The notes: generated from the sequence alone by a model not told the origin. 64,000 nucleotides of DNA from Psammoneis japonica (GCA_008632985.1 QPGO01000012.1:372001-436000), one strand, 5' to 3'; positions 1-64,000 are shown, counted from the stretch's first letter. Made by a program: numbers and translations.

Positions 1-12
1 CCATTTGCCATG

Positions 13-461
13 TGCAACACACAGCTGCCAATGAGAGTCAATGCATCACGGCGACGTGTTGCAGCCTTTAAATGTCACAACGGGCATGACAAAAACAACC
101 TTTTGTCTGCATGCATGCTGCACCATGAATTCACAGCGGAGTGGTTCATCGCAACCATTTGGGCAGGAGGCCAGGGGTTCGAAACCCTGAGTGGGAGTTG
201 TCTGCAGCAACGTTGATCACTGTCGAACGCGCAAAACTCTGTGCAGTTCTGTGTGTTCCTTCGCACGCACCCACACTGTTCCACCAAAACCGTGCAGTGT
301 CAGCGCACGTCAGCAAAGAGCCGCATGGACGCGTGACACATGGGGAGGAGTGCAACACACAGCTGCCAATGAGAGTCAATGCATCACGGCGACGTGTTGC
401 AGCCTTTAAATGTCACAATGGGCGTGACAAAAATGACCTTTTGTCTGCATGCATGCTGCAC
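13..461 (+). repeat. Direct repeat of about 110 bp (13-123 and 350-461)
   Basis: TGCAACACACAGCTGCCAATGAGAGTCAATGCATCACGGCGACGTGTTGCAGCCTTTAAATGTCACAA... occurs twice, 338 bp apart, at the point where the helicase similarity breaks off. Confidence 0.85.
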
Positions 462-3400
462 ATGTTCTCATTGTGCGGGATCATGACTCTGCATCCTTTG
501 CGTGTGCACAAAACTGGGTCAAGCCTTCCAGACTGCACGTCAACATCGCTCTCTCCACAATTCTTCCAGAATGTTTTGCACACAGGGAAAGGTCCATGCT
601 GTCTGGCTCCATCACACACTTGTGAATTGTTGCTGAAAATGGCCAAAGAGTCCAAGACTTCTCCATCTCTTTGGTGCAATTTCCTGGCTCTTTCTTCAAA
701 CAAGGCTGAGTCAACAGAGTCTCTGTCTTTGTTCCTGTGTGTTGCACATTTGATGTTCTCTGGGAGCTCTTGACCATTTTTCACTGCTCTTTTGTTTTTT
801 TTTCCAATGTCTTTGAGTGCCGCCTTGCCATCCCTGAATCGTTTCAGCAACTCACCCCACTCTGGATCATTGCTGAATCTGTGCATCCCATGTGGCTCGA
901 TGCAACAGTTCACCCATTCCTGGAATTTGGCACAGGGTTCTTTGCAAGAGGGTTCATGCCATGTCCCACTGGCTTGAGTTGTCTCAGATCACCTGCAAAC
1001 ACTGCATTCATGCCCCCGCAAGGTCTCCCCAAATTTGATTTTAAAACAGATGGATTAGCGTGCAACTTTTCCAAGTCTCTTTTGCAAGCAGTGACATTTT
1101 GTTGACAATCAACAAATGGGTGTCACTCCAGCTTTCCATTTGTGTTTCTGTCATTTCTTTTTTCCTGTTTGAACAAGCCACTCTGTGAGTGGTGTGCCTC
1201 CTTTTAGAGCAGTTGCTGCTGCTCCAGTCATGGCAGCAACAGCCATTGTGTGCATTGTGAATGGTTGTTTGATTGGAGAGCAATGTTTGCTTGCACGCAA
1301 AACAACAAGATCAATGACAGTCAATTTCCCACTTCATCCTGCTCCATGCAAAAAACAGACATTGATTGTGTGGTCCGTCATGCACGTGCTTCAACCAACT
1401 TCGTCAATCTCCTGTGTTCTTTGTCAAACTCATGCATGCCTGATTCCTCCTCTGGCATTTCCGCTGGCTTGTTCTCCCAGAGCATCTTTGCAGCATGTCA
1501 AAACGAATGTTCCCACAACAACTTCAAATGCACGTCTTTGGTGTGGGTCCAGCTTGGCTTTTCTTGACCAATTGATCATGCTTTTGATGGAGCCATTCAC
1601 TTCATGGACATCAACCATTTCTTCTGAATTGGTTGTGTCTTGGAAGGATTGTCAAATGCGCTGAGTCTTGGCCACATCTGATTGTTGCTGCTTTCGCCAT
1701 TTTCTTTGTCAACCTCATCCTGTGGCGGTTCCATCATTTCCACAACAGGTTCCAAATTGATGACAGTGTCTCCACAAGCAGCAGCAATGTTCATGTGTGC
1801 CAAGTGTTGACATCCTGCAAGATGACTTCCTTTTTGCCTGGTGTGTTTGCCGCTTGAGTGTGACAGGACGGTTGCTTTGTCATTCATGTCTGACCCACCC
1901 TCGTGTTTGCATTCCACCAATTCTTCCAGGAGAGCATCAAGCAGCTGTCCTTGCGGAGCTGTCTTGGTTTCATCTTCACTGTCGTTTGCCCTTGTTTGAT
2001 TGAACTTGTTTTCAGCCGTCTTGTGCTCACGTGTTGTGCATTTGAGGTGATCTGAGGTGTTCTTTGAACAAAGACAATTGGACTTTGCATCTTGCAGATT
2101 CTGTGGGAATTTCAAATTTTGTTCAGCAATGACATCCTCTTCCACCGCCTGACAGAATGATTGCAGGCAGGTTTGATTGAATGGCTGCACATCCGAAATG
2201 GTTTGACATGGTGTGAACAGAGCAAGAGCTGGCTTGCAATTTTTCTTGTGTGGATGGTGCAGCAACGTCCATTGAAGAACTGCCAGATGGCAAGGTCAAC
2301 AGTGCAATCATGATCGAAGGTCTGCATGATGGACAATCGAGTGTGGTCGTTGCTGCGCACCAATGCAGTTGTGCACATCTGTCCAGTTGATGCCGACAGA
2401 GTTCTCACACCATTGCACCTCAAATCTCTGTCACCAGAGTGCAGCCTGTCTCTTGCTGTGTTTGTGTTTTCAAACCATGCCTGCGTGTGGCTGTGTGCTG
2501 ACAGTCTGCCTTGTTCTTCCATTGCAGCTGCAAAGGCAGAGGGTCTTCCCATGTGGAACTCGAAATCCTCTCTTGGTGAATTGCTTTTTAAGTCCCATGA
2601 TCCCATTGTTTCTTCTGTGATGATTTTCAACAACATCTTGAACACAAAAGCTGTGATGCCTGGGTGCTCCACACAAAGTTTGTTTCTTGCCCTGGCCTTT
2701 TCAGACAATTCATCGTCTGACATCAATGTTGCATCTTCGCCCTTGTCGACAAGCAAGTTCACATGAATTTGAGCTGGAAAAGAATTTGCATCATCTGGGC
2801 TTGTCATCAAAAACACTCCAGGTTGCCCAAAGTGATGTTGACAGGTTTCAGCATTTCTTCTCATTTTCTTTGCTGCTTCATTGGTGTGCAGAACAGATGC
2901 TGACATCACATCCAATGCATTCAAGAAATGGTGCCCCAGTCATGATTCCTGCATTCACCAGTTTGTCTGTCATGTGTGGCTTGGTCAACATCATCTGATG
3001 TCAGCTCATTTGAGGGTTGTCTTGCTTGATCCTTGTCTCTTGCTTTCCATCCAGCACTTTGCACCATTTGTTGCTTCACTGTCAGATTGCACAGGGTCAA
3101 CACAAAAAGTTGTTTGTGGAGGTGGGGCTGAGAAATGCAAGCCAAATGATCCATGCAATGTGCTAAATTTGTGAGGTCGGCGAGACTGCTGTCTTCTTTC
3201 ATTCTGGTTTCATTGACACCACCACATCCATGAGGGCATTGCAGCAAGCATGCGTCAACAAGGTTGCCATCCTTGAAGTCACCAGCAAATTCTTTCATGA
3301 GGTCGGCCTTGAATTTGATGTCAAAACGCTTGCAGCTGCACTGTGCACCAAGTCTTTAAAGCTGTCTAAATTGCACTGGCCTCCTGTTGTTGAAGAGACT

Positions 3401-4517
3401 GCTCCATTGAGGAAACAGACGCTGTGTGACTCTGATGTTTCAATGTTTGCATTTTCACTTTCTTCTAGACTGCTGTCACTCACTGGGATTGGATTTTGCA
3501 AATTTCCAACCTCCTCTAGATCAATGTCTTGACACATCCAATCCTTGTGGTGGCAGACAAGCCACTCCAATGCTTGCATTGCATGGTGCATCCTGATTTT
3601 GTTCTTTTGTCTGGCCATTCTCCTTTGCTCTGGTGTCATTTTTCCAGGTGTTGGTGCAACGATGTTCTGGCGAAGGTTTAGAGCGTCAAAGTGCATGATG
3701 GTGCAAGCGATGCTCTTGATTTTTATCTTGTGATGGGCAAGGCCACCTTGCAGTTTCTTCTGTTTGCCACTGACAACATCAAAGCAGCAGCCATGTGTTT
3801 TCACGGGTGTCAACAGAGCCAGCTCCACTTTGGCAAGGCACAACAATTCAGGTGGTGGTGCTCCGAAACAGCAGTTGTTTGCTGTCACACATGCAGGCAT
3901 GGAATCAATGTGGAGACTTCTTTTGCAAGGTTTGCAACATGTGAATCCTTGGACCTTCTGTTGTCATCCGGCACAATGCATCGGGCTCTTGGCAAAAGTG
4001 ACAAGTTTGAAATCCATGGGCAGTCTCACGGAATGCCATCATCATTGAATCAACAACAATCATGAAGGTCTTCCAACACTTGGCTCCATTCTGATGGAGT
4101 CAGTGGGTGCCTGGCTTGATTCAGTCTGTTGATGGAAAGCCGAGTCACAGAGGATGGTTTTAACAGTCTGTCACACACCAAACAAACCCAAGGGATGCAC
4201 TCATTCCCATTCCTGCAATGGAGCTTTTCGAAGTGTCTGTTTGTCACGTCTTGGTGCCTGGAATTGACATGCTGACATTGCAAGACGTTCTTCAATGCAT
4301 TCAGGATTGCAGCACTGGCATTGTCGCACCCGCAGGTGTCGATGTTTGTCCCTTGGCTGTGGTGCTGAATGAACTGGATTTGAAGTCTCTTTGGCAAAGA
4401 TTGCAAATTTTGGCATAATTTCCTGCCACATGCTCCATGCGTGCAACTTCGTGCCCTCAGTGCCACACATTGAAATGGATTTGAAGTCTCCTCGGCAAAG
4501 ATTCTAAATTTTGGCAT
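440..4517 (-). mobile_element. Helitron RepHel (HUH Rep + PIF1 helicase) pseudogene, fragmented, probably with an internal deletion
   Basis: Minus-strand motifs in the expected order: VCLVCDRLL; PACVTANNCCFGAPPPELLCLAKVE (DUF6570-like); CPHGCGG (FPYGxGG-like); FGQPGVFLMTSPDD (Rep motif 1); EEQGRLSAHSH (HUH motif 2); ALALFTPC; AMTGAAATALKGG (PIF1 Ia); LLIVNKMS (DExS); CGGMNAVFAGDLRQLKPVG (PIF1 III); GMHRFSNDPEWGELLKRFRDG; GCRVMI..N. Rep motif 3 (YxxKY) not found; a jump occurs near 2290. Confidence 0.9.
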
Positions 4518-4560
4518 AATTTCCTGCCATGTGCTGCATGCGCACAGCTTTGCACCCTTG
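4372..4560 (+). repeat. Tandem duplication, about 101-bp period, at the 5' end of RepHel
   Basis: TGGATTTGAAGTCTC...GGCAAAGATT...AAATTTTGGCATAATTTCCTGCCA occurs twice. Confidence 0.85.
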
Positions 4561-4816
4561 GCACAGGACGTTCTTCGTGGGGATCATTTTCCTGCATGGG
4601 ATTGCAGTGTCTTTTTACGTGTTTTCAGTGATGTGTTTTGCCGTTGCCAATTTGATGGTGCTTGTCCGCGATCTGCATTTTGTGCCTTTCCTCATCTGCT
4701 CACAATTTCTGCTGGGATGGGGAAAGACAGTCCAAGTGAGTCATCCCCTTCATTTCACTTTTCTGCTTGTGTGCCATTCTTGCTCAACTGGTCTTTTATT
4801 TTTCCACAAGCATGGC

Positions 4817-6315
4817 ATGGCATGCAGAGCCAGGGGCTCCTCCAAGAAATCGGACAAGCAGGCTGCCAAGAAGCCGCAGTCACCTGTCAAGTTTTCTGCT
4901 TCTCTCATGAAGAAGATTGCTCCCACTGAGTCTAACGGTTTGTCTGATGAGGATCTGAAGGCGGAAGATCTTCTTGCAAAAGCAGGAATCAGGGTTGCCA
5001 AACCCACCGGAGCACTGCTGGATGTGACAGCAGCACCAAGGGCGCCAATTTCTGCATTTCCAAGATGTTCAACGGCAACAAACAGGGTCTTGTTTTCCAT
5101 TTGGAACCCAGGGGTTTGGTCAGCCCCTCTGGTGTGTGGGCCAAGATGGTCCTTTTTGATGCCATGCATGCCAACAAGGCTTGGGTTGTCAGTTTGGGGT
5201 TGTTCCTCACACCAAACAGTGGCACCACAACAACAAACCCATGAAGAATGGAAGGAACTGTTCCATCCGACTCTTTGTCATCTGCATCAAGGGACGTGTT
5301 CCAGTCCCGGTGACGCACAAAACGACAATCGGATTTTGAGTGTAATTTGTGTGTGTTTTAGTGTGTGCAGCATTTTAACAAAAATGCTCAGACGGATTGA
5401 CTGTTGCAGGCTTCTAGAGTGTGAACATTTAAACAGTTTTTTGAGGGGTGTTCAAATCATCATGGGACATGCATCACAAACTTCCTCAGTGGACTCAACA
5501 CTGATTGTACGTCAGTGGATTTATGCTGAGATTTTTTCGCAGGTGGAAAACCTGCCAAGCAGCATTGTAGAAAGATGTGTTTGGGTGACATCCAAACAAC
5601 GGCAATGTTTTCGCCGAAAATCATCCGTTGTGTTACGAATCTTTTAACGCAATGAAAAACATAGATGGCACAATGACAATGACATTGCAACACTCACACG
5701 AGTCTTGTCAGTGTTGCAAAACATTTGTGTTTGCACAAATCTGTGCTTTTGGTGGTGAAAGTTCGATCGTAAGTCAGGGACCGCGCAAAAATCGCGCAAA
5801 TGTCGTTTTTGTGCACGATTTGGTTCACGTGCGGCTGGAACACGTCAAGGAGCCCCCCTCTGATGAAAACATCAAAAGGCTTTGCAACTGCTTCGATGCT
5901 AAGCTCAACAACAAGCCCGACAACAACACTGCCACTCATGTCAAAGACGACTGCGTCTGGATCAAGGATGGTGTTTGGGCAGATGTCATCAGAAACGATG
6001 CGGCTTGAATGAGCTTTGTAAAGAGGGTGGCGACTTTCACTTGGGATGGTGCAAGCAGCACAAGAACTTGCTGCACAGCTGCCTTCATGCTGGCACATTG
6101 CCAATGGATTCTGCCGTGTGATTGGAGCCCCAGTTGAAGAGGTGGCTGAAGACAATGATGCCCATGTGGGGGACCAGGACAAGGAGCAGGATGAGCAGTT
6201 GTCCGACGGTGACAATGGCGATGACTTGCTTCTTTGTGATTCAGATGACAAGCAAGTGTGCTTCTGTGTGGAGAAGTTGGCAGTGTTTGAGATGTGGTGC
6301 TGTGCTTGGTCCTGA
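4817..6315 (+). pseudogene. Hypothetical gene, interrupted by a MITE and hypermutated
   Basis: Protein-like segments MACRARGSSKKSDKQAAKK... and RLFVICI|KEPPSDENIKRL... rejoin in frame when the MITE and one TSD are removed. Acidic C-terminal part. Confidence 0.55.
5293..5846. mobile_element. MITE copy A (554 bp), 12-bp TIR GACGTGTTCCAG, 4-bp TSD AAGG
   Basis: AAGG|GACGTGTTCCAG ... CTGGAACACGTC|AAGG. Homologous, in inverted orientation, to the copies at 48080-49211. Confidence 0.92.
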
Positions 6316-6800
6316 AACAGTGCAAATGTTTAGTTGAATTTACCCCGCATGAGTGAGAGTTGCCAATTCCACACCACGGACTTCCACACCAAATCTGCAC
6401 TGCATCTGTCATCCATCAGGTTCTTGAATTTTCCTGACCCCTCCTCCCCACCCCAAACTCCCCACAGCCAGACGCTTGGTCAGTGCATTGTGTGCTCAGA
6501 TTTGTGAGGTCCTGAAGATTGCAAACGATGTTGTCATTGCCTGGCATTTTCAGAATTGCATGAAAGCACAAATTGCATCATGCATGTGAGATGCACCCGT
6601 GCTTGTGTGCCACAACACAGTGTTGTCAAGCCCATCATTAGAAAAATTTTCTAAATTTTGGAAAATGTTTCCACCATGTTGTTCAGTGCTGCCACCGGCA
6701 CTGCATGTGCTCTGCCAACTAGAGTGAGAGAGCAGCAGAGAGCAGCATGTTGACAAACACTTTCTTGGAATTTTTTCCTAATTTTAGAACACATTCCCAA

Positions 6801-8130
6801 TCATGAGAACAGCCAATGGCAACTGTGCCACTTCTTCCGGAGACTCTTTGTAGCAGGTTTCTTGGCAGGCTTGAGCACCCTCTTCTGTTTCCTCTGGCTT
6901 GCTGCAACGATCTTGGCAGGCTTGGGCCAACCCTTCCATTTCTTCTGACTCTGCACAACCAACTTGGAATCAGCATCCTCATCTTCTTGATGCTTGCACA
7001 GAAGTTCTTCACCAGGACAGATGCGCTTCTTTGCAACAAGTGCACCATCGTCATTGAACTGACAATTGTCAGCATTGGCTTCTGTCTTGGTCATCTCACT
7101 GGGCTCTTCAAATGATTCCTCCACATCATTCACACAATGCATGCCCATGTGCAGTGACTCAGTGTTCTCGGCATCATCCAGCTCCGTGGGTTTTGGAGCT
7201 GCCATCACACAGTGCCCTGAAGGTTCGCGCAGGGTCATGTGACAGACACTGTGATCAACACCACAACAATCATCGTGGTTGCAATGGGTGTGAGGAGTTG
7301 GGGGTTCCTGGACACTTCCGTTCCAACGCACACCCCAATGACCTCTTGTTTCTGGAAAAAGGATGCAGCGAACATGCCAAGTCTGGCACCCTTCCTTTGA
7401 GAAAGACCGATTTCGAAGTGATCCCTCCAGGGATTCTGGTTGTGAACAGTTAGAAAAACATTGATGAGTGGAATGTCATGGTGAACATGCACTCACCTGC
7501 TGTTTGATGCACATCTGAAGTTGGGGCCTCCGCTGTTTGTCAAACACCTCCCAAAGATTTCCAAATGTTGGACATTTTGGCAAAACTCCAGCGGGTGCAG
7601 ACCAGCACCAACGGCGCGGCTTGCCTTCGGATTTTTCTACAAATTTTAAATTGCTGCACTTCAATCCAATCTGTCTGATGCTGTTGCACCACACACCTTT
7701 GCCAATGATGGGATTGGGATGGTTTTGTGATTTGCCACTCATGAAGTTGATGAGTGCATTTGCGTCGACTTGGTGAGACTGCCATTCTGCCATGCCCTCA
7801 GGCAAAGCCTCCACCTTGCCCCCCTCCTCTGACTTCTCCTCAGCCTCCACCTTGCCCTCCTCCACTGGCTCCTCCTCTGCTGCCGTGTCAGTTGCAGTGG
7901 ATGTCTCGTTTGGCAGCAGTTTAAACTTCGGATCCACAAAAAATGTGGTGCCATCAATGTTTGTGGATTCGCAATGGCACTCACTTGCTGTGTCCACTCC
8001 TCCGCACATTTCAAACTGGTCATGATGAACACATGGAGGGAGAGGAAAATTGTGGGTGGCACAGGCACATCTCCTGCTTTGTTTGTTGTGGCAGACATCG
8101 GCGCTGCCTCTGAGGTTGTGCTTGTCTCCG
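6801..8130 (-). pseudogene. SET-domain-like protein remnant with an intron
   Basis: FEIGLSQRKGARLGMFAASFFQKQEVIGVCVG resembles the SET N-terminal GxGLFA...IgxYxG; ESLHMGMHCVND resembles lyMGxHyxND. Minus-strand intron signals GTGAGT (about 7496) and CTAAC...CAG (about 7455-7435). Frameshifted. Confidence 0.55.
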
Positions 8131-9879
8131 TCTGCAAATCAAGGTGTGCAAGTGTTTTGACAATGGTGTGTTTGGCACCATCCTCCACCACCATGTTGGT
8201 TTTAGGAGTCAATGAAGCAACCCCCTTCATTGTGATGAGAGAACAATTGCAGTCAACAATGCCTGGTGCTGCAGTTGAGAAAGCAGCTGACAGATGATGC
8301 TGTGTAGAGCAGAGAACCGCAAAGCACAACGGAAAGGCGTGTGTTGCAAACACGAGCACACAGTTGAGTGCACCTGCTTGCAGCCACATGCATCGCATGA
8401 CAACAACAATGACCGGGACATGCAGTTGCTGATGTCACAAGTTCCAGTCATGAAAACCATGGCTGGATGTGAGGAACTGCTGGACAGCCAATGTGTTGCA
8501 TCATCGGAGAAAATGAACAGCAGAACACCAAATTCCTTGTGCATGAAAAGGGGGGCAAGACACTGAGGGTTTGTTCTGATGTCAGTGTTTGAGAGAGAGA
8601 GGTGATCATTGAAACACATTCCACCAAATTGTCCAACAGTTTTTTTCCCACAAAATGGAGGTGATCACAGCTTGGGCAGCAATTTCAATGACATGCTCAT
8701 GCCTTTTTTTCAACACTGCTGCCCTTTGCTCTTCCAAAACTCCAAAGAGAGAAAAAGCCATTGACTTGGAGATCCCAAACCATGAATGCCGCAGCCAATG
8801 GAGTGAGCTGCAAGACCCTGATGGAGCAACTCCATGCCCCATGAATGACGCCATTCCATTGCAACTCGGCAATTTCAATTTTCAAATGAGCGCATGTGTG
8901 ATTGTCATTTTTGTTGTCCAACCAACTGCGTGCTTTGACTGTGTCATCACAGTCTGATCTGCAAAACAATGCAGATGGCCTTTGGTGAGAGACATGGAAG
9001 TGGACACATTCAGTTCATGCAGCAGCCTCAAAACAATGGTTGCCAAAAGAGAATCCTCTCACAATCATTCTTCACATGCTGCTCTTGGTTCATTGTTGAC
9101 ACTGCTGTGATCAATGCAACAACAATGTGCCGCCAATTCATGTTGCAGTGCCAACAATGATGAATGTGTGATGCAAGATGTGTGAGGAGGAGTGCAGCAG
9201 TCTTGAGCATTGTTGTCTTCTGCGTTGTGCAAAGCCTGCATCCTGCATGTGAAAACTGCAGAAAGATCACCACGCAGACTCTGGTGCAAACTCCATTTTC
9301 GCGAGGTTGTCGCACAAAAATGGGTCAGTGCACAGGGGAAAAATCCGTGACCTCCCCCCCCCAATCTGAGTTGCCCAAAGCACAACTTTTGACCACACGT
9401 TTGCGCAGAACACAGAATTGCAAAAAGTTGAAAAACCACACAAACATGCAGGATTCTGCGCAAATCTGGCTGGCACAAAACGAATGCAAAGCTGCCCTCT
9501 TCCATCAGAGTGCATGAAATGTTAAAAATGTGTAGATTCACATGATGACAATTCATTAAAACATTGCAAAACATTGTTGTCACATGATGACAGGCCAACC
9601 TCTGGTCACAAGTTTGGTGTGCCAACATTGCAACAACTTGTTGAGAATCATGCATGCTGTTTTTCACTGTGTCCACATCGCCATTTCTGCCTCCACCTTG
9701 TTGCCATGTGCCAATGCGCGATTGCATTGCCACACAAACCTTGGTTTGTCAATTTTCGCAAACATTGTTTTAAACGAGAAAAACATTTCATCGGCTGAGT
9801 CAATTCCTTGTTGCATCTGCAGTGCAATGACCGAGTGCCATGTTGGCTGTGCACACATTTTTTTGCTGCAACTCTCTTA

Positions 9880-11131
9880 AACTGAGCTGACAATCATCAT
9901 CGGACTCATCTTCATTGGACTCGTCTTCATCGGATTCGTCTCCTCCGTTGTTCGTTTTTCCTTTTGTGATTTCCTCCTGCTCGTCGTCATTGCCATTGTC
10001 GTCCCTGCTGCTCTCCACCATTGGGCTGTTCATTGCCTTCACCTTCTCCGCATCATTGGTCGGTGCTGTCTTCTTCTTCTTTTTTGCTTCTCCGGACTTC
10101 TTGCACTCGCCTTTCTTGATCTCCGCACGCCACTTTTCAAACTCCTTGCCCTCCTTGGAGTCTCTGTCTTTCATCACCTCTGTGCACAAATCGTTGAACC
10201 GAATGATTCCGTTGTCTCCCCAAGACTCTCATTGTTTCTTTGGCTTCATGTGCTGAGGGGCAGGCCTTGTTTCTTTGGGCTCCATTTCCTCACCCAATTC
10301 TTCCACCGCCTCCTCCTTGTTCCTGTGTGCCCACACCTGCCAACAATTCTCCACAGCTGATGGCGCCAAAGCTTTGTCACATGCCGCAAACAACTGTGAG
10401 ACCTGTGCATTCCCAGTTTTGACGGTGTGACTCCATGCCTGCTTTTGCTTGGTTTGAGGCAGGATGTGATCACAGAACCACTTGTGTGCCTGCTTGTTCC
10501 TTCGTTTGCCGCCGGCAACAGTGTCCAGGCTGGACGGATCCCATGTCGGCACAAACGGGATGTCATTCTCTTCATTCTTGTCATGGCTTGACTTTTTCCT
10601 GTTTTGCTTTTTCCTCCTGACTGCCGCCTTGTGTTTCTTTTCTTTTTCCTTTCCCTCTTCCTTGGTGACAATGCCCACATGGACAAAGCATCACCGTCAT
10701 CTTCTTGTGAGATGTGCACAACTCTTGAATCACACACATTGGTCACTTGGCTTGCGGGCCATTGTCTCCGCCCCAACAGCCAAACACACCGTGTTTCTGC
10801 GATTGTCAACCTGCCTTTTTACCGCCTTTTTTGCCCATTCCTCCCAAGTTCCTGACCAATTTGAAGTGTCCATGTTGCCACCAGCAATCTGTTTCTTGAC
10901 AAACATTGAGATGCTCCCATTGCTTGCCAATTCTGATGGGCTGAGAAACTTCACCTGTGGAAAGAGATCATTTCTGGCCACCTTCTCCACTTCAGATTTC
11001 AGTGCACCATGCGCTGCCTGCGTGCCTGTTCTCTTCAACACTGCCTGAAGTCTCGGGCTCATTGGCCCAACAGTCTCATTTTTCTTTCTCTTCTTTGCCG
11101 GTGGTGCTGGAGACGACATCTTGATCTTCAC
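9880..11131 (-). pseudogene. Transposon-associated hypothetical protein remnant
   Basis: Coherent charged protein segments: LFPQVKFLSPSEL, KWFCDHILP, CDKALAPSAVENCWQVW (DEAxxxxxxEN-W-like), and an acidic tail. Broken by frameshifts or introns. Confidence 0.5.
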
Positions 11132-11825
11132 ATGGCAACAATGAGAGCAGTGTCACTGTTCGACAGTGCAACCGTCGTCTGGGTCGTGTTGAGACAGCTC
11201 CATGACATTGCACAAATCATTGTCGGCAACGTTGAAATTTGAAAATGTGTTTGCACATGACAATGAACAGTCCAACTTGCTTTTTGACATGGCTGTCATT
11301 GCGTTCCAACGGAGACAATGTTCTTTGTTTTGACAGCAAATAAAAAAGAACAACATTCGTTGTAAATGCCAGATGAAAAATCAAAATGCAGACACGTCAC
11401 ACCTGTGTGAATCATCCAAATCTGGAAGACAATGTAATGTTTGCCATTTTCCCGCCATTTTTCGCGCGTTGTTCTTCTTTTCCCTTCTCATCCACAAGAC
11501 AAGGATGACGAGCATGAGTCTTGATGAAGGCCCTGTCAACATTGACCAGAGAACTGTGAGGCAACGGCGTCAGCATGCAGACTTGGTCAGTCGCTGGCAG
11601 CTTGATCACAAACAAAACAACTGGCTTTCAACACCTGAGAAGACTCAGTTCTCACCCAAGTCACGGGTTGTCCCTGTCAAAGCAATTGGGGACAATGTTT
11701 TGGTTTATGAACAATGTCCAGGAGCAGCAGAAGCACAAGAAAAGGCCCTGTTTGTTTGGGCCACACAGGACAGAAGGAAGTGTTGGTCAGATTTGTTTCT
11801 AAAATGGGGCACGCGTCTGGATCTG

Positions 11826-14800
11826 TCATTCACTCACAGTGATTGCCCAACTCTTTCTTGCAAACATGATGAATTTGATCCTTTCAGAATCAGCAAAGTC
11901 ATTGCAGCACATGCGAAGCAGTGCGGCACGAGCACCTTCCATTGCTTTTGTTCTGATGTCTTCTTCGGAAACTCCAAGACAAGCTTCTTCCTGATCAGAG
12001 GGCTTTCCCAACCACCGTTCTCGTTGTTCTTGGGTTGTGAGGTTGCTTGCAAAGAATGTGCTCGCACAGCTCTTTGCAGCATCCTTGTCCATTGTGCATG
12101 TGTCGAACACAGCCAACAATTTCTTCCATTGTTTGACAACCTGGAAGAAGGTTGCAAGAGCAAAGGGAATCACTGTGCCCCCCCCCCTTCTTCGTTTTTG
12201 GAGAGCAAGGCCCGAAGATCAATCAGATTTTGGAAAAATTGAGTCGTCCCAAAATGACTGTCGCACCACTCTCCATCTGGCATCCAGCAGCAGTCCAACA
12301 TGATTTGGTCAAACCCATGATTGTCGAAATCAACAAGTTTCTCAAACTGCTGCTTGACTCTCTTGACGAAATCTCTTGCTTTCACATTGCAATTTAAGTG
12401 CAGATCAGGATGTCCGTCTTGGAGAGAAACTGTCATTACGACGTTTGCAATTGTTTTGTTAGATTCCTCAAATGCCATTGTGCGGGCCTCGTCTCGCCTG
12501 TGTTGGTCGGACAACACTGAGGCCACCCCCTTCTCAGAGCACAATTCTTGAGAAGATAGTTGCCTTGCATTGAGCGGACGGGTCATCCCCAACCACAGCA
12601 CATTGTGTGTTTCCCCGTTGGTTTCGTCACTTGCGAAACAATCTCCTGAGTCGCCATGGTCCTCTTCACCCTCGGAGCAATGTGCAACTTGGTTGTGCTC
12701 ATCGTCAACAGGCTCTTCGCTTTTGTCCTCTTCACCCATGCAAGCAGTGGGAAGTTTGCTTGTTTTCTCGTCAATTGACTCCTCCTCGCAATCGTCACTT
12801 TTGTTCATTGCGAATGACAACAAATCACCGGCGGCCTTCTTCCTGTTAGAACGAGAAATCAATGTGACAATGTCAGCACAATCAGACAAAAAACAAATGT
12901 GATTGCCGTGAAAAAGCAACCTCTCTTCACCGTTCCAGTTCAGCTTGAACTTCATCAATCGTCACGAGTGGGACTGGCTCCCACTCACACCTTCCAAACC
13001 GCTTGATCATTGATTGCCCATCAGAGAACAAGAGCAACAGATGCTGTCCACAACAAAAGACATCGCAGATTCCCATCTTTTCACGAGCTGCACTCAGGTC
13101 ACATGGCAAAGACTCTGGACCATTCTTTCCACAGTCTTCCAAATCAAAATCACCCTCCATCCGTTCCAAGAGTAAATCGCGCTCCTCCACCGGGACCTTC
13201 ATTTCCTCCATTTGCTTCGCCGCTCCCAACTTGGCCACCGGATAGACAAGATTACGAAGGTCAGGGTGAGGATGGATCCCTGTGCCACACAGCATCAACA
13301 TCTGCACAGAGTTCATGCATCTGAACTCTCCACAATCAGCACCTGTGTGATCCCATGTTTGGACCACGGTTTGAAACATGTCCTCGATCGCCTTGTGGTC
13401 AAATGTTGGCTTGCCAACATTGTCATTGATCCAGTTGATGAGAACAACCAGTCCGCCAACAAGCAAATCCATCAAACCGTTGAGTTTCGTCCCGCACTCT
13501 GCCACATGAACCTCCTCGAAATCGAGTCCCGGGCTCTGCATGCGTTGGTTGTTGCGATCCCCCGCAATGCTGTCGAACAGCCTCGTGGCTTCTCTGAAGT
13601 GATGAAGAGCACAATCGCCAGCCAGGAAAGGACGCTTCACAGCATCTGTGTTGCACAACAAGCAGCAAAAATGGGAGAATCCGGTTTGACACCCAGCCAC
13701 AACGGCGTGACGAAAGCAATCATGTGCACCAACCTCATCGAGGTTGTCAATGATTGCGGAACAACTGCACGATAAATTAAAGTCCTTCACGATGGCAGTC
13801 AGAAGATGTTTCCTCTGCATGACAATGACGGGGTGCTCAACTGTGTCGGATGGAAGATTTGGCTTGCCAATTTCCTCTTCCACCCACACAGAGTGAGGGT
13901 CAAGGAAAAAACATTTGATGTTTCTGTGGGTAGCTTGCCCGACGGAGGACGACAAGGGCCACGGCATCTCATCATTTCTGCAGCACATGACAGATCAAGT
14001 TTTGCAAAATGACCATGCACACGCGATTGGAACTCGGCATGCCCATGTGCTGAACTGACACAGTTTCCAGCATTGCCTTTGGATGCAGTGATGACCTTCA
14101 ACGACCAAGAGCGACCAACAGCGTCTCGCAGTGACAAGCAAAGAGCACCAGTCTTGGTGCACCCATCCATGTCACAATCCTCTTTGTCAATGTGCAGCTC
14201 GGTGTCCGAATTGACGGATTTTTTGCCAGACGACGAGATGCACTTAACTTGAATTTCCATGCCTTCCCTTCTAACATGCTTGGCTCCAACCATCTTGCGG
14301 AGCTCAGCCGTGAAAAGACTGTCACGGTGCGGGTCATGGAAGGAACGCATTTCTTTCAATGCAACAAGATTAATTTCGTCCTCGCAGAGTTGCACGGTGT
14401 CCAAGATTGAGGCCATCATTTCCTGCACATCCTTTGGAAGCTTCTCCCACTTGTCCCTGCCAAAGACAGCACCAGGCTTGTGAGCAGGTCCCACTTCAGC
14501 TAACTCACCGTCCGCGACTTCGTAATTCTGGCCACAACAACCAAAACAGATCCAACAGCGCAACTTGCATTCTGGTCCATCCCTTTTTTTGTTCGGCTCG
14601 CCATGTTCCAACACTGCACGGAGTGTCGACAACACACTGAATCGCAACCCAAAAAAGCATTTCTGATGCATCTTGTCCGTGTGTCGCAAACAAGTGACCG
14701 CGCCGGAAAAATGAGAGGTTGACTGGGTCGGGCAAGCAATCGCAACCATCGATTCTTGCGTCGGATCATTGGGAGCCATGCCGTTTTCAAATCCATGCAC

Positions 14801-16610
14801 AAACTTGCGGAGGTGATTCACCAAGTGGAAATCAGAGATGCTGTGGAATGACTGGTGCTTGACACAGTCCCCCTTGAAGGAACCGGAAATGGGGGTTTCC
14901 TCAAAGACGACAAGGTGAGAATGTTGTGACTTCACCTCACCCGGAATCGTAAACGGAGATGGTTCAGGAAACACTTTCACAAGCTCTTCTTTTGTGAAAT
15001 TGTCTGGCAGAGGAGGAGGCGACTGACAAGTTGCACTGAGGGTTGGCCACTTTGTTCGGGAACATTCAAATTGTTCCTTGAGAGTCGGCACATCTTGGAG
15101 AATCAGCGATTTGTTCTGAGAAACATCAGAAGGTTCACCATCTTTGGGGTTTTTGAGACTGGGGCTTGAGGAGCAAAGGGAGGCGGCTAAAGAGGTGGCA
15201 AGAAGAACAGAAGAATCAGAGACAAGAAGAGGAGCACAAACAATCAATCAAACAATGTGATGGATTCACACCATTTGGATTTTTTCGTTTCCGAGCATTT
15301 TTCGTAACGGATGGAATTGCATTGCCGATTTCTTTCTTCTTGTGCTGAGTGGCAAAGTCACGAAGCCTGGCTTTCCACACAGCCTCAAAACGATCCCTTG
15401 CAGCCTTGCTTTTGCCGGAATCGTCAGCGGCAGAAACCACACGATCAATTTTCACACATCTTAAAAGAGTCTCATCGACATGTGTTGCACGCATTTGTTC
15501 TTGCTCGACATTGAGCATTGCCAGTCGCACAGGCTGTCCCCAAGAATGTTTGTGTTGGTGGAACAACAACTTTACGAGTTCAGGGAAGGACATGGGGCAC
15601 TCGTCTTTGGTCGTCTCATGGTGACCAAGAGCCAGGAAATCCTCCAAAAAGTTGATGTAAGTTGATGTCTTGTCACATTCGCCAAACAGGGAGCACAGCC
15701 AACAATCGCAATCACCATTCCTTTCAGGTGCATGCGGCAGAATTTTGTCACGAAGAATCAAAAAACCAATGTGAAGGCATTGCGCACAACGCAAAACCTT
15801 CCCTTCAAAACTTTTCAGCTCAATGTGCTTGACAAGTGGCTCTCCCTTTGGGTCGCACAATCCGGGATCATGGAGAAGCTTGCACAACATGGAAATCTTT
15901 GCCATCATGTTGGTTGCAATGTCTGTTGATTTTGCCTTGTTGCCAACGACTTTCACATCCTCTGCTTTGGGAGCACGGCAATGCTCCAATGCATGAGGAT
16001 GTTTGGCGCCTTGACTGGAACAACTCCATCCTTTTGCAGAAAGAAAGTGCAGCGAGCTCTTGCACCCAAGTTCCTTTGCAACAATGCGGTTCACAGCCAT
16101 CAGTTCCACAAAAAAATGAGGTCTGCCCTTCGACTTTTGCCACACACAGGCAAGCGCGATCCAATTCGGAGAGGGATCACAAGTGGAATTGCGGTGAAAC
16201 TGAACCTTGGATTTCACCGTCTTGATTGTCGCTTTGACACGGCTCCGCTCGTTGCCATTGATCACTCCAAAACCGTTGGCAAAGAGAGATTCAAATGCGG
16301 CCTCCTCGAGGTGGGAATCATTGTTGTCTTGCGACAGAGAGGCAACCAACAGGTCACGCGGCACCATGGTTGCTGTTCCAACACCAAACAATCTGGTTTC
16401 TGCAGAAATGTGCCAGAGTGGTGTGTGGGAGAAGTTGCATGTGCGCCTGGTGCAATTTGGAGTTTTAAACACAAAAACCTGCCAGACGCGCATGTGACTT
16501 CTCCCAGGGAAATCCCACGTGAGATCATGCCGGGAAAGGGCAGTGCGGAGTGCAGAATTGATGGAAGAAAACATTGTGCGGAACAGCATCAGGAGAAAGG
16601 GTGCATGCAC
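11826..16610 (-). pseudogene. Large hypermutated hypothetical gene or gene cluster (about 1500 codons in overlapping ORFs)
   Basis: Chain of ORFs 15216-16610, 13799-15247, 12927-13988, 12170-12958 and 11826-12173 with protein-like composition but almost no Tyr. Weak HxD (about 14190) and Rossmann-like (12280-12610) motifs. Confidence 0.65.
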
Positions 16611-16792
16611 TGGAAAACAACATGGATTTCTACATGCACGTTAAGGTGCATGAAAAACATGTGGGTGCCTTCAAGTGATGCGCGCAAACCATCATAAAGA
16701 AACATCCGGAAATGGAGATGGCACAGAGAGAAGTCAGAAACATGGATCCAAAACAAAGTGACACAACAGAAAAAACAACAACAACAACAAGA

Positions 16793-17195
16793 GATGAAGG
16801 CGATGGCAACGGGATCAATGAAAAAGAAGGATTCGGATGGAAAGACGCCGGAGACGGTGAAAACAGGCGGCGCCAAGACGAGGAAGGAAGAGAAAAATGG
16901 GATGGGCAAAATGAAGAAAGACAAAAAGAAGCCGACGACACGACGTCAAGAGGGGAGCAGCAATGCCATTCAGCGTTTCAAGGGACCTCTTCCTCTTGAT
17001 GATGTTCACCCAAATGCAAGAAATGCAGTGTGGCTTTTTTGGAACGGTGACAAGGAAACATCCAACGAGGCAGCGGCACATTTGAAATTCTTGCAAGAGA
17101 GCGGACAAGACATGTGGAATGAAGAGGACGATGCGGACGACTGGGCAAATTGGAGCACAGTTGTTGATCAAACAATTGGTGCACACTTTGCATGA
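16793..17195 (+). pseudogene. Small hypothetical protein remnant (Lys-rich N-terminus, acidic C-terminus)
   Basis: ORF MKAMATGSMKKKDSDGK...WANWSTVVDQTIGAHFA, divergent from the large minus-strand gene, with no Tyr. Confidence 0.4.
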
Positions 17196-18809
17196 TGAAA
17201 ATTTCATTGCATGCAATTGCAATGTTTGGCTTGTCGTTAAAGATCGTTGGTTGTTGTGAAAAAGGCAGAGCACAAAATTTAAAAAACATCTGTGTTCAAA
17301 CATGAAGAACAGCAGGAGATTGATGATTGGCCAAATGACAAAAACCGTCATGTGTGGACAAGCAGATTTTATGGTGTGGCAACACATTTTTGTCATGTGT
17401 GCAGATGTTACGATGTTGTGCACTCTGATGTCCACACCATGGCAAAGCAAGGGGGCAATCACAAAAAAAAGTGCCTGCAGCTTTGATCACTGTTGTTGCT
17501 GTTGGTGTTGTCATTCAACTGCACTCGTCACCGTGACATCGCAAACCTCTGAGTCATCCACCGGCACCAAGATTGAGCTGTTGCAAATCATCAAACCACA
17601 TCATCATCTGCATTGCAACATCCTCAAGGTTGAAAGGTGACTGTGAGGTGACAGGCTTGAGGGCTGAGGATGAAATGCCGGTGTGCTCCAACTGCTTCCT
17701 CTGCCGGCACTTTGGCATGTGCTCTGGTGAGTGTGGTGCACATTTTCCAATCGTTGCCACACACTTCAATTCCAACGTTTTACTTCTGCCACCATTTCTG
17801 CCATTTGGGCTTGTCATCCACCATCCACACCACACACAAAGCTGTGGAGCAGCAGATGTTGAGTGTTGAGCATTGCCAAGGCTGGCATCAATGTTGTCAT
17901 GATGTTGAATTCATGAGCATTCAACCCTCTGTTTGGACGCTGTGTCAAGTCCAAGTCTTTGTCAGAAAATGTTGATTTCCCAAACTCTTTGTTGAGTTGA
18001 TTTGATCTTCTGTTTTTACTTTTGGACATTGACGCCATGGATTGAGACATGGTGGGGCAAGGGGAGAGGCATGTGACTTTGTTTTGTGCATCAAAATGAA
18101 GGTCTTGAGCAGTCTGAGTAAAAGAAGAACACAAAAAAAGACACACAACACAAAAAAGTGACTGGACCCTGTCATCATGCTTTTGAGGGAGTGCTTCTGT
18201 TGCTGGGGCCCGAAAGCAGCAAGCCATGGTTCCCTCCAAGGTGGCCCCATGCAGCACATTGTAGAAGCCTGTGTTTCACAATGCTTTGTCATTGTCATGC
18301 TGCCACGAATGATCATTTTGTTGACTTGACTTGCTGATTGTGCCCTGCTGACTCAACTTTGAGGAACAAGGAACAAGCCTTTTTGGTTTGCTGCAGCTTT
18401 TCTTCTGTCGTGGCAGTGTGGAATGACATGTCACAATGCCCTGCCACCACACAATGCAAGAGAGTTTGCTGTGTTTGGTTGCAAAGGTTGCAATGCAATG
18501 ATGGACCTCAGTGCCGTCCTGACTTGACAAAGGAAAAATGTGCCAGACTTGTGTGGAATTCTGTGTGTTTTGTTGTTTTTTGACTTTGTGATTTTGGCGG
18601 GAGGCTTCTGCAAAAGTTGTGCTTTCTGGCAGTTGTTTTTTGAGGGGGTGTTTTGTGCAATTTTTTCCATGGATGACGAAAATGACTGCAACTGCACAGC
18701 ACCAACAAAGCAGTGAGCAGTGGCGCACGAGCATGCACGAATGAGGCTTTTGGCTTTTGAGCAATCATCCAGCCAGAGCAGGCCGGTGGCTCTCCACAAA
18801 ACAAGTGGG

Positions 18810-18950
18810 ATTCATGCTGGAACTTCCGTGGGATTTGATGAGGACGCAATTCCATTTTGACAAGGACAAGCAGAAAGCAACGGTCCATTTTGGTGCAAAT
18901 TTGACAAGGACGCCTGAAGAGGAATCCTCTGGATTCCCCTCCATTCAATG
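18810..18950 (+). repeat. Dispersed repeat, also present at about 55345-55480
   Basis: CAATTCC(A/G)TTTTGACAAGGACAAG...GTCCATTTTGGTGCAAATTTGACAAG...GAGGAATCCTCT is shared between the two sites. Confidence 0.85.
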
Positions 18951-19035
18951 AACAACAAGTGCTGCAATGAGAAAAACAACACACCATGAGGCTCAACCGA
19001 TGCTCAATTTTGCCACCGAACCTTTTCCTGCCAAA

Positions 19036-19568
19036 AGTGAGGGCTGAGGCCAGTGAACGGCTCAAGGAAGTGGTCAGTCCCACCTGCTCATGACTCAGCA
19101 CTTTCCCACAGTGAAAATTGCACAGGAATCTGACGATGACTGAAACGGTCAGATGACTTCCAACAACAACAATTTTTGCTGCATGCAATGCACATTCCTT
19201 GTTCTTCAATGCACAAACCAACCACTTGATGCGTCACATGCAGTCATTTCCCTGAGCTTTGCCAAAATGATGCTGAGCACTGCATTGCGTGTGTGCAAAG
19301 CTGTGCAGTGCTCTGCACAATTCGTCTTTTGTTCGGATGACTTCCAATTTGTCAAAACAACTGCATGCAATGCCCAAAATGGTTGATTCAAGTGTTGACA
19401 AACAAAGAATGCAAGTTGCGTGCAGTTGATGTTGTTGTTGGCAGAAGTCATCTGACCGTTTTTGTCATTGTCGGATTCCTGCACCATTTTCACTGCAGGG
19501 AAGCACTGAGTCACGAGTGGGCAGGACTGACCACTTCACATTTACGCGCGCTTGCCTCAGTCCTCACT
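19036..19568. mobile_element. Foldback / MITE-like element with imperfect inverted arms of about 210 bp
   Basis: AGTGAGGGCTGAGGC...GAAGTGGTCAGTCC...AAACGGTCAGATGACTTC (19036-19245) is the reverse complement of about 19350-19568. No TSD recognised. Confidence 0.8.
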
Positions 19569-20337
19569 GATGCATGACATGCCATGTTTTTCCTCTGACA
19601 AGTGCATCAATGAAAAGAGATGTGAGAGAAACCCAAAAATGGATGAAAAATCCTTCCTTTGGTTTTTGCTGCCATTCTCACTTGATTCTCACAAATTGCA
19701 CAGCAACAACTGAAACTCTGTTTTGCCGCCAAACCTTTCCCACCAAAAACACACAAGGCATTTGAGCAGAGAGAAAGGCAGTGTGGGAGCAGGTGGCACT
19801 GTCTTTGATGGGGCTGTTGTTGAAATTGTGGTGTTGTCTGAACAAGTGCAAGCTTGTCCAGTTGCCTTTGTTGCTTTCCGCAATGCAGCAGCATTGGCAG
19901 TGCAGTCTGCAGATTTGCCAGCACCATTTGTGTCCGGTCTTCTTGAAATGGTTGCTTTTGATGCAATTGTTGGCTCATCAAGGCAGGTGGCATTGCAGCA
20001 GCAAGGCAGTTGGCATGGGAGTTGGTGCTTCTGGAGCAGCCAGCTGGCACAGGACATGTGTGGCATCGGAGCAGCTGTGTGTGGTGGGGGACCAATTCGA
20101 AAATTCAGGATCAATTGCAGTGACAAAAAGAGGAGGAAAAGGGGATCAAAAATGTGATGATCACAGGGCTGCTGTGCACTTGTCATTGCTGACTTCTCCA
20201 CCACCAATTCGCAAAGATGGGCTGCAGCTCAAAGGGTCATGGAGAATTCCAATCATGGAAAGGACAAAAATGTAGAGCTCATTGTGCTTCAACCTTGGTT
20301 TCACCACAAACAAGGCGTGCACATGACAACAATGCAT

Positions 20338-20680
20338 GGATTTTCTTTTGCACAACAAGTTTGGACAACATTTGTGCATTTGATTTGTTTGGCTCACACA
20401 TGTGTTTGCAGTGAGTGCGATCAATCTTGCACTCATCCTTGTTGTTGGACGTGTTGGAGCCGCTTTTGCATTGTTTGTGCATGATGCCTGGGCTTGGAAC
20501 TCAACAACATGCCGGGATTTTCTTTTGCACAACAAGTTTGGACAATGTTTGTGCATTTGATTTGTTTGGTTCACATGCATTTACATTGAGCTTGATCAAT
20601 CTTGTGCTCATCCTTGTTGTTGGATGCACAGGGACCGCTCATTTGCATTGTTTGCATGCGATGGCTCTGCTTGGCATGCA
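20338..20680 (+). repeat. Tandem duplication, period about 177 bp
   Basis: GGATTTTCTTTTGCACAACAAGTTTGGACAA...GATCAATCTTG..CTCATCCTTGTTGTTGGA occurs twice. Confidence 0.85.
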
Positions 20681-23600: not shown

Positions 23601-23804
23601 TTGGCACACACATGTGAGGGTGTGGACCTTGCGCCATGAAGCTGGCAATGCCACTCACTCTGCAGCATTGTTTTGTTGGTGGTTTGAGCAATGTTTGCTC
23701 CACTGAGGTGCCTTGACCTCCAGATGAGAAGGGTTGCTCACCAGCAGCACCGCATCATTTTTTTTAGGATCATTTTGCCACTGCTGCTTTGTTGATTGAT
23801 TGAT

Positions 23805-23832
23805 TGAGAGAGAGAGAGAGAGAGAGAGAGAG
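23805..23832. repeat. (GA)n microsatellite
   Basis: Perfect GA run preceded by (GATT)n. Confidence 0.9.
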
Positions 23833-24369
23833 GTGCTGATTTGTTTGTTCATTCGTTCATTCAAGAGAGAGCCAGTGGAACAAAACCTGCTCAAATTTCA
23901 CTGGAACATGACCAGCTGTTCCACCCACAATGAATGATGGCTTGCTGACTTCCAACAATCTGTGGTGCAAAAATAGAGAGATCAGGCATGAGCTGCTCTC
24001 ATGTCCAGATTTTGCTCCCTCAAACCTCCAGCCCCAGAAAATCCCATGCCAAAGCAATCAACAGCTCTTGAGCCATCATGCAAGAAGATCCACTGCAACT
24101 GCCCCCATGGCCCACAGTTGCAGCTGCCACCAGCTGCCACTTTTTCCCAGTTTGCAGTTCCATCACTGCTTGTGACACCAACAAAACACCAGAACATCCT
24201 GAAGCTGACACTTCAGAGGGGGGGTGCCACAACCACTGTGCCAGTCAAACTGGCATTGGGGACAGAGACAGCATTTACAAAGATCATGCTGCATGAAGCC
24301 TTGCACATTGTGAGCCGGGCAAATGAACAAAACTTGTTGCTCTGCCATTTTGCATGGGAAGCGGTGCTG

Positions 24370-24920
24370 AGAACCACTGGTGTCAGTGCACTGCACTTGG
24401 CACATGGGCTTTCAAGCTCACAAGACTTCCTGACAGCATGCCCATGAAGTGCAAGGGTGATTTGCAGAAACAAGGTGTTGACTTTTTTGAGATCTGCAAA
24501 TTAGCAGCACAATGTTCATCCAAACACCTTCTCCTCACCACATCACTCAAGGACGTTGGACTGCTCATCAAGTGGATTGTGTTGCTGCCTTCTGTCAAGC
24601 TGATGTCAAGGAAAAGAGTGCATGTTTTTGGCAAAGGGTTTTGGGCTAAAACCAGGTGCTGAGATTGTTCAAAAGCCCATGTGCACTCCAACAGTCTCAG
24701 AATCACTTCTGTGAAAAGCTGCATGTTGCACTGCTGGAGCGTGGTTGGATTCAATCCAACGTTGACCCTTGCCTTTATTTTAAGAAGAGCATGCTGTGCA
24801 TGGTGCATGTTGATGATACTGATTTTTGCGAGTCAATCTTCTCAAGAACTGGAGCAACGCCATGTCTTTGACCTGCGTGATGAAGGTTAAGTGGGTGACT
24901 TTCTGGGTGTCATAATCTAG
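24370..24920 (+). mobile_element. Ty1/copia reverse transcriptase fragment, inactivated
   Basis: GTWAFKLTRLPD, KGDLQKQGVDFFEIC (GVDYFETY), LFKSPCALQQS (KSLYGLKQ), GWIQSNVDPCLYFKK, MVHVDD (YVDD), FDLRDEG*VGDFLGV. Confidence 0.9.
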
Positions 24921-63895: not shown

Positions 63896-64000
63896 CTCCT
63901 TGGGGTGGCAACAGCCACTGGAGCATTGGCGCACTTGGTGCACTTGTCGTTTTTGCTTGTGTCACTCTTCTTGCTGTTGGCCAGGCCCCACCCAACATCT

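Follow-up and report, generated by a model that had tools for sequence, protein, structure and literature searches.

Layout of the window and extent of TpA loss

The window, which is the whole 64,000-nt stretch of Psammoneis japonica DNA analyzed here (QPGO01000012.1:372001-436000, contig G000:C12), alternates gene blocks with approximately 35 TA per kb and TA-poor blocks with 3-5 TA per kb. The subject of this study is the erasure of the dinucleotide TpA from the TA-poor blocks, which comparisons of transposon copies revealed to be a directional change of TA to TG or CA on both strands. The first TA-erased block (1..24776, its edge near 24776 being approximate) consists of nested mobile DNA with approximately 4 TA per kb, and over 1-24770 the observed-to-expected ratios (O/E) were 0.06 for TA, 1.74 for TG/CA, and 0.40 for CG. 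None of the blocks was assigned a strand.

The erased state was also found elsewhere in the genome. A genome sample of 38 stretches of 10 kb (378 kb) was taken at fixed places on the larger contigs rather than at random, 2 of the 40 requested stretches being nonexistent. The erased state covered 157 of the 378 kb, with an O/E of 0.06 for TA, 0.38 for CG, and 1.72 for TG/CA, and the corresponding values in the remainder were 0.60, 0.98, and 1.16. Short-read contigs (run X1) reproduced the erased DNA, namely, 1142-4196 with one other letter and two gaps and 6497-8489 with one other letter. An artefact of long-read sequencing or assembly was ruled out by this agreement; run X1 may be the source sample and is thus not biologically independent.

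Several kinds of mobile element lie in the first block. A Helitron remnant occupies 2115..3963 on the minus strand, with Helitron_like_N at 2115-2939 and DUF6570 at 3298-3963, and its relatives elsewhere are 78-80% identical. At 5293..5846 (no strand) lies a miniature inverted-repeat transposable element (MITE) of 555 bp with the inverted-repeat ends GACGTG..CACGTC and the 4-bp target duplication AAGG. A multi-copy element of approximately 7.8 kb, whose class is unnamed and whose left end is approximate, spans 9590..17431 on the minus strand. Within it, three overlapping frames at 12927..16640 (minus strand) encode a large protein with an HxD motif, either as a broken gene or because of assembly indels, and each frame contains one Tyr; the outer two frames were matched by eye and through family copies. 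Separately, 19067-19537 forms an inverted repeat with arms of 183 bases that are 74% complementary.

The first block is followed by a gene block (24777..37073) with normal TA (35 per kb) and CG, which served as a control and contains a gene with Sin3 and a NifU-domain gene. The best named relatives of the Sin3 gene are from pennate diatoms. The host open reading frame (ORF) at 25341-26252, within 24694-26595 and close to the edge of the block, is duplicated at 82% identity elsewhere on this contig (L133, G000:C12:37108-41086). Neither copy was erased, and the TA changes between them were symmetric (9 vs 12, with 34 kept).

Three further erased blocks were found, at 37074..44498 (2.6 TA and 7 CG per kb), 47628..51411 (3.7 TA per kb), and 54968..64000. 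In the end part of the last block (62387-64000), 6 TA but 67 CG per kb were counted, and loss of TA therefore runs ahead of CpG decay. This part carries a Gag-like frame, recognized by eye and without a Pfam match, in which TA is erased and CG intact. Furthermore, 37437-39175 and 49627-51228, which lie 12.1 kb from each other in two of the erased blocks, represent an old duplication (78-93%), and older relatives of the 555-bp MITE lie at 48079-49121.

Direction and mode of the change

The direction of the change was determined by comparing copies of the same element. A TA-rich copia copy (L059) and its 90% relative (L085) showed 140 TA>TG/CA differences; among 167 TA, 70 had become CA and 67 TG (137 in total), and 21 were kept. 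With Y for pyrimidine and R for purine, the kept sites comprised 11/27 YTAR, 10/82 mixed, and 0/58 RTAY sites. When an outgroup (L061) was added, 67/151 TA adenines were found changed vs 19/898 other adenines, and the changes lay on the TA-poor copy. Among 11 young copia copies, TA>TG was counted at 78/3198 sites, other A>G at 36/14449, and CpG>TpG at 24/3756. The TA>TG rate was thus 10 times that of other A>G (still six times without the outlier L077) and four times that of CpG>TpG. The outlier (G000:C388) carries 33 TA changes, mostly in one 1.1-kb tract near one locus end, and its 10 siblings carry 1-12; this tract suggests spread from a neighbouring domain.

Elements other than copia were affected as well. 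When the MITE of the window was compared with an intact copy (L163), 42/54 TA were changed (26 to TG and 16 to CA), 12 were kept, and seven other changes were found. In the family of the 11.5-16.5 kb element, 94 alignment columns contained both TG and CA, and none of the 20 copies retained TA or CG there. Y..R flanks were present in only 10 of these 94 columns, vs 22 of the 57 columns still holding TA. These mixed columns point to TA sites erased separately in each copy after insertion, although some could be former CG. The columns of the Helitron relatives also showed independent TG/CA outcomes, and a DNA transposon is therefore affected too. Overall, the outcomes were nearly equal (432 TG and 406 CA). 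The direction is TA>TG/CA, on both strands.

These counts bear on RNA editing of element transcripts by ADAR or ADAT and on reverse-transcriptase error, either of which would be fixed at retrotransposition. Copia elements are affected and the genome holds two A_deamin loci, which would suit this explanation. However, individual copies contain an interspersed mix of TG and CA outcomes, an element with terminal inverted repeats and a Helitron family are affected, and MITE copies agree in outcome at only 989/1772 comparisons (56%), so they were changed independently, after insertion. As retroelements, the Helitron family, and the terminal-inverted-repeat element are all affected, the change was made on DNA. 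DNA transposons show the two-strand pattern, which refutes the explanation, and we give it practically no weight. The process is independent of codons and of element class.

The MITE family (L159-L163 and L169-L188, 25 copies) showed how the process acts. Its 4-bp target duplications differ between copies. Only a single TA occurs in the 10-base flanks of 20 copies taken together, so the MITE lies in DNA that was already erased. In the 12 converted copies, the fractions changed to G were 424/1296 for TA, 18/1452 for AA, 6/780 for CA, and 2/648 for GA (26/2880 for all non-TA adenines), so that AA was changed approximately 27 times less than TA. Moreover, 424 of the 435 changes at TA adenines were to G (97% transitions), and 11 were not. 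Strand runs of events were absent from the MITE copies (203/409 vs a null of 201 ± 9), and strand-coordinated mutation, as by a processive single-strand process, was thus ruled out.

The 25 copies were bimodal, 13 carrying 0-4 events and 12 carrying 15-47, with equal non-TA divergence (p 0.43). Furthermore, two intact copies (L160 and L163) lie within fully erased flanks. Consequently, exposure was all-or-none rather than clock-like, and steady decay was excluded by the bimodality. CpG>TpG changes were found at 17/528 sites in converted vs 1/572 in intact copies (p 4e-5), and this CpG decay is probably a sign of methylation.

An error-prone Y-family, Pol eta-like polymerase could take part in patch repair of heterochromatin, such as that following excision of deaminated 5-methylcytosine (5mC), and place a wrong G across from T at TA. 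Transversions are frequent in the spectrum of Pol eta, and AA is a target almost on a par with TA, whereas in the converted MITE copies AA was nearly spared and transversions were rare. These copies also had 25 TA changes for every CpG change. In favor of a polymerase, TA loss accompanies CpG decay, both strands are affected without runs, and the available text of PMC7884765 on somatic hypermutation describes WA mutagenesis by Pol eta with a TA hotspot on both strands. On balance, such a polymerase appears improbable.

Flanking sequence and surviving sites

A sequence-only reading of the window had proposed that YTAR sites resist erasure and that RTA and TAY contexts are almost gone. On the plus strand of the first block, the 107 surviving TA comprised 58 YTAR (25 TTAA, 16 CTAA, 13 TTAG, and 4 CTAG), 28 RTAR, 20 YTAY, and one RTAY. 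Survival was calculated over all TA, TG, and CA sites with the same flanks and amounted to 58/1209 (4.8%) for YTAR, 48/2889 (1.7%) for mixed flanks, and 1/1370 (0.07%) for RTAY (chi2 77.5, p 1.5e-17). In the erased DNA of the genome sample, the O/E of the NTAN tetramers spanned 0.184 (TTAA) to 0.003 (ATAT), compared with 0.40-0.87 in normal DNA. Thus, TA depletion depends on the flanks, as had been proposed, and equal depletion is refuted both in the window and in the 378-kb sample. The two contexts described as almost gone made up 49 of the 107 survivors, and only RTAY was nearly absent.

YTAR itself is not resistant, being depleted 2- to 7-fold in erased DNA. In the genome sample, TTAA kept approximately 46% of its genic O/E, and CTAG approximately 14%, which is no better than TTAC/GTAA (13%). 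The base at +2, numbered from the adenine, also matters, survival being 0.057 for TAAA and 0.052 for TAGA vs 0.009 for TAGG and 0.012 for TAGT. TARA on either strand was found at 80/107 survivors vs 1481/5467 pool sites (27%), and TYTARA sites survived at 20/106 vs 2% overall. Accordingly, TARA on either strand describes the survivors better than YTAR. The main examples of the sequence-only reading, TTTAAA and TCTAGA, fit the TARA/TYTARA type; 10 of its 11 cited TA positions were exact, and the TCTAGA placed at 5414 has its TA at 5415.

The flank effects were quantified using a two-strand competing-risk model with a site bootstrap, fitted to 1258 polarised outcomes at 550 sites. The input was the 12 converted of 25 MITE copies and 6 of 10 copy pairs, and high-scoring segment pairs below 85% and sites near gaps were excluded. 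The rate ratios were 2.78 (2.06-3.68) for a pyrimidine at +1, 0.50 (0.40-0.61) for A at +2, 2.48 (2.02-3.21) for A at -2, and 0.60 (0.45-0.74) for T at -3; A at -2 exceeded T at -2 by 2.95-fold. The site-bootstrap intervals excluded 1 and the signs agreed in both the MITE and non-MITE subsets, and the +1 effect (TAY vs TAR) was alike in these independent data (2.83 and 2.79, respectively). TATC changed approximately 11 times faster than TAAA. The best target was ATAY with a base other than A at +2, and the slowest sites lay inside TTTAAA, TCTAGA, and TTTAGA/TCTAAA. The changed fractions were 370/855 for TAT, 244/589 for TAC (614/1444 for all TAY), 114/539 for TAG, and 110/533 for TAA; TACG, at 38/108, was not favoured over TAY as a whole.

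The preference is graded, approximately 2-5-fold per position over -3 to +2, and the binary YTAR rule was replaced by these weights. They also ordered the survivors by modelled hazard, with 62/958 surviving in the lowest bin and 3/1677 in the highest bin of the window and 348/5640 and 36/9928, respectively, in the genome sample; genic DNA showed no trend. The enrichment of YTAR is the tail of an exponential, because a modest rate difference per strand (2.8-fold) acts on both strands. As survival drops exponentially with exposure, this difference grows to an approximately 65-fold gap between YTAR and RTAY in old DNA. Of the earlier proposal of an enzyme with a defined motif rather than drift, the directional, context-dependent mutator stands, given the polarised copies and the 2.8-fold TAY/TAR ratio in two data sets, and the defined motif gave way to a graded preference. 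TadA-type deaminases and Pol eta had been put forward there for comparison, and neither matches, since TACG is not favoured and AA lies approximately 27-fold below TA.

Weights on the 5' side were mirrored by those on the 3' side (r 0.82, 0.57-0.95), a symmetry suggestive of a duplex substrate or of an effect of duplex shape. A mutator that sees TpA only would leave the flank rule to duplex shape (A-tract-like flanks resisting base flipping), to nucleosomes, or to context-dependent repair of the lesion. This is consistent with the mirroring of +1/+2 by -2/-3, with the finding that A at +2 has more influence on whether a site is spared than on which strand changes (77 vs 112 when the +1 class is shared), and with the YTAR sites kept at 28/64, 80/118, and 32/36 with zero, one, and two protected sides. 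However, strand choice was asymmetric: at sites with TAY on one strand only, the adenine of that strand was changed in 263 cases vs 146 (p 8e-9), and TAC was preferred to TAT, 101 to 62, at RTAY sites. We regard a mutator blind to the flanks as possible but rather unlikely. It fits either chemistry discussed below and addresses only how the flank rule arises.

Drift, selection on Tyr or stop codons, GC-biased conversion, and assembly artefact were also considered. TAY is the Tyr codon pair, which the sequence-only reading had singled out, TAR is the stop pair, and genes themselves show a mild TA deficit (0.60). Against these explanations, the flank ratio was the same in coding elements and in the MITE, which was treated as non-coding (555 bp, 35% GC); other A>G changes were 10-100 times rarer, the short-read contigs confirmed the sequence, and the changes in the duplicated host ORF were symmetric. 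Selection on Tyr or stop codons is ruled out by the shared ratio, and the group as a whole is refuted, with a negligible probability. The Tyr link is coincidental. The loss of Tyr, which leaves one Tyr in each of three ORFs of 355-482 aa, is a by-product of TA erasure.

Proposed mechanism and comparison with known systems

A host mutator is proposed that would act in episodes on silenced, probably CpG-methylated domains of mobile DNA. At TpA, it would turn A:T into G:C, on one strand or the other, with TG or CA as the product. The most likely candidate would be an adenine deaminase that turns A into inosine, read as G, and that acts on duplex DNA or flips bases out of it; a role in defence would be plausible. 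We give such an episodic, heterochromatin-directed deaminase of duplex DNA somewhat better than an even chance. An adenine deaminase is favoured because of the near-absolute T at -1, the pure transitions, and the precedent of Bigelowiella natans described below, and a duplex substrate is inferred from the mirror symmetry and the lack of strand runs. Deamination of A and oxidation of T are indistinguishable from sequence alone, and the attacked base may be the adenine or its partner thymine.

Several points weigh against the deaminase. No dedicated or expanded deaminase was found in the genome search, and the loci detected look ordinary: one TadA-like, one ADAT2-like, a dCMP deaminase on two contigs, a fusion of a deaminase with a 2-oxoglutarate (2OG) domain, and two A_deamin loci of the ADAT1/ADAR type with the catalytic His-Ala-Glu motif (L269, G000:C40:112674-113392, and L270, C79:344558-345390). 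The flank weights are unlike those of TadA (YTACGAA; here, A is favoured at -2 and TACG is not) and of fungal Tad2/3 (purine at +1). The preferred substrate of evolved TadA enzymes is single-stranded DNA, whereas the mirror symmetry observed here is a hint of duplex DNA, and the symmetric part of the flank rule could stem from DNA shape or repair rather than from the enzyme. The same 54 MITE sites were reused across 12 copies and one locus (L089) entered three pairs, and the site bootstrap covers only the MITE reuse. Finally, wherever the flank of a MITE copy was visible, it was TA-poor, and targeting by domain is therefore confounded with targeting by homology. As side observations, the fusion (L167, G000:C79) joins the deaminase domain and a 2OG-Fe(II) oxygenase in one frame, and C5 DNA methyltransferase gave 27 matches in the genome, several clustered on C297 and C301, which are contigs with MITE copies, and others on C10, some with stops.

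The thymine could be attacked instead. A TET/JBP-type dioxygenase would oxidise the thymine of TpA in silenced repeats to 5-hydroxymethyluracil (5hmU) and then to 5-formyluracil (5fU), and 5fU:G pairing would give T>C, with the motif R-T*-A-T on the other strand. As TA is self-complementary, all counts fit this chemistry equally. The multi-copy element at 9590-17431 (L001-L020 and L102-L131; 50 matches at 85-100% for a 2-kb part) is of interest here. Its protein of approximately 1,400 aa belongs to an unnamed family with 229 relatives at E 0.001, at least two subfamilies, and a C-terminal E..CE motif. In alignment A1, H173 was present in 53/54 and D175 in 54/54 rows with a residue, and an Arg (R211) was conserved. 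We take the protein to recall TET/JBP plus a thymine-pyrophosphorylase/HhH domain, a resemblance without profile support.

In TET/JBP enzymes, a distal His is needed before the 2OG-binding Arg, but in alignment A1 no His reached 70% conservation from D175 to R211 or beyond. Searches of Pfam, PHROGs, NCBIfam, PDB sequences, and the ESM Atlas gave no hit to the protein, whether to a double-stranded beta-helix profile as in TET/JBP or to any other, and 28 of 30 loci of the family are themselves erased, only L120 and L131 keeping much TA. Because of the missing His, the lack of a profile match, and the many copies that are victims, the HxD protein may be regarded as a lead only for the mutator enzyme. 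PF12851 had no match in the genome, although its positive control was also silent, so that this negative is weak. In the literature, 5fU is described as pairing with G, with T-to-C as the result, and 5hmU was assigned by early studies to TA and TC contexts, yet 5hmU in B. minutum shows no sequence motif (PMC11071213); dinoflagellate transposons are marked by 5hmU made by TET/JBP (PMC11572971). Overall, thymine oxidation is the main rival to deamination, although clearly the less likely of the two. Separately, four distant relatives (P0108, P0057, P0096, and P0105), only approximately 30% identical to the G000 loci, are nearly devoid of Tyr and contain 0/219, 2/387, 8/773, and 4/364 Tyr, respectively, with His or Cys at conserved Tyr sites, which hints that the same process may occur in other genomes.

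No report of TpA erasure in diatoms was found in the literature covered, most subscription papers lying outside it. In metagenomes, 0 of 80 copia loci (the best 80 of 218) had a TA O/E below 0.3, the lowest being 0.36; this negative is weak, as the search started from a TA-rich copy and copies may be collapsed in short-read assemblies. The process rewrote about two-fifths of the sampled DNA of a diatom, a lineage far from Bigelowiella. It inflates the ages of diatom transposons estimated from copy divergence and strips Tyr and TAA/TAG codons from dead elements, leaving long false ORFs. The flank weights are a quantitative fingerprint with which candidate enzymes can be tested in vitro and the two algae compared for a shared system, and the MITE family is a ready reporter, with 54 sites and with intact and converted copies side by side. 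More broadly, diatoms, and perhaps Bigelowiella too, might possess a dedicated duplex-DNA editor of A:T to G:C at TpA, recruited in bursts to methylated transposon domains and reading a footprint of six bases with mirror symmetry; we hold this tentatively, as a conjecture with appreciable odds against it. In the boldest form of this conjecture, the enzyme would be the HxD protein of the multi-copy element or a domesticated copy of it. If true, the conjecture would imply a naturally occurring adenine editor of duplex DNA (or a mutagenic thymine oxidase), of interest for base editing as an A:T>G:C editor, and a second, opposite-direction counterpart of fungal repeat-induced point mutation (RIP).

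RIP changes C to T and creates TpA through dense repeat transitions in a dinucleotide context; it senses homology and is tied to sex and to a RID-type methyltransferase. The diatom process resembles it in the dense, dinucleotide-context transitions in repeats, the sharp borders, the spared genes, and the probable link to cytosine methylation, but its direction is opposite, as it destroys the TpA that RIP makes. As for duplication as a trigger, 13 of the 25 MITE copies, at 97-99% identity, were nearly untouched and the 82% host duplicate was spared; timing could explain both. RIP is a process of ascomycetes (PMC7296669, PMC7882544).

For bacterial TadA, from which base editors have been derived, the required motif is TACG/YTACGAA within an RNA loop, and editing is lost when +1 is T (PMC12255301, PMC8052359, PMC10085711). 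Like the diatom process, it changes A to G after a T, but it shares with this process only T at -1, U at this position being common to TadA and ADAT editing, and C at +1; unlike TadA, which has Y at -2, the diatom process changes TAT as often as TAC, does not favour TACG, and favours A at -2. Fungal mRNA editing by Tad2-Tad3, a stage-specific retargeting of ADAT, occurs at UA in more than 70% of cases and favours A/G at +1 (PMC11156358). U at -1 and a eukaryotic ADAT are points of likeness, but the substrate is RNA, nearly all diatom events are at TA, and the +1 preference is reversed. Pol eta shares the TA hotspot on both strands and differs in the 27-fold lower AA and the 97% transitions observed here. 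The 5hmU made by TET/JBP in dinoflagellates (PMC11572971, PMC11071213) is likewise a thymine change on repeats overlapping 5mC and could give T>C via 5fU, but there it is a silencing mark for which no mutational footprint is described in the text available, and the diatom genome gave no TET/JBP match in the PF12851 search with its silent control.

The closest system is that of B. natans, the one case in which a TpA-directed mutator has been measured, in one preprint (Mettrop et al., bioRxiv 10.64898/2026.01.13.699255). TpA>TpG/CpA hypermutation of integrated virophage DNA and DNA of nucleocytoplasmic large DNA viruses (NCLDV) was measured directly there; it is active in a subset of lines at approximately 1000-fold over background per generation, and deamination by ADAT was proposed, not shown. 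The two systems differ in supergroup (chlorarachniophyte vs diatom) and in extent, the O/E being 0.45 in the NCLDV region vs 0.06 here, close to saturation, over 157/378 kb. In the diatom, at least four kinds of multi-copy transposon are affected, and CpG decay is added. A flank rule and any mention of diatoms were absent from the main text of the preprint in a word search, although Fig. 2B or Table S2, the latter with 231 de novo mutations, may hold flank information. The present analysis measured the polarised weights out to ±3, their mirror symmetry, the all-or-none exposure, and the association with CpG decay. In both systems, the changes are almost only A:T>G:C at TpA, both TpG and CpA are produced, and the process is local, targeting foreign or mobile DNA and sparing host genes, as with the unerased host ORF described above. 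Neither is constitutive, hypermutation being confined to some lines in B. natans and to some of the bimodal MITE copies here, as judged from copies rather than lines. Thus, the diatom process shows the tested features of the B. natans phenomenon.

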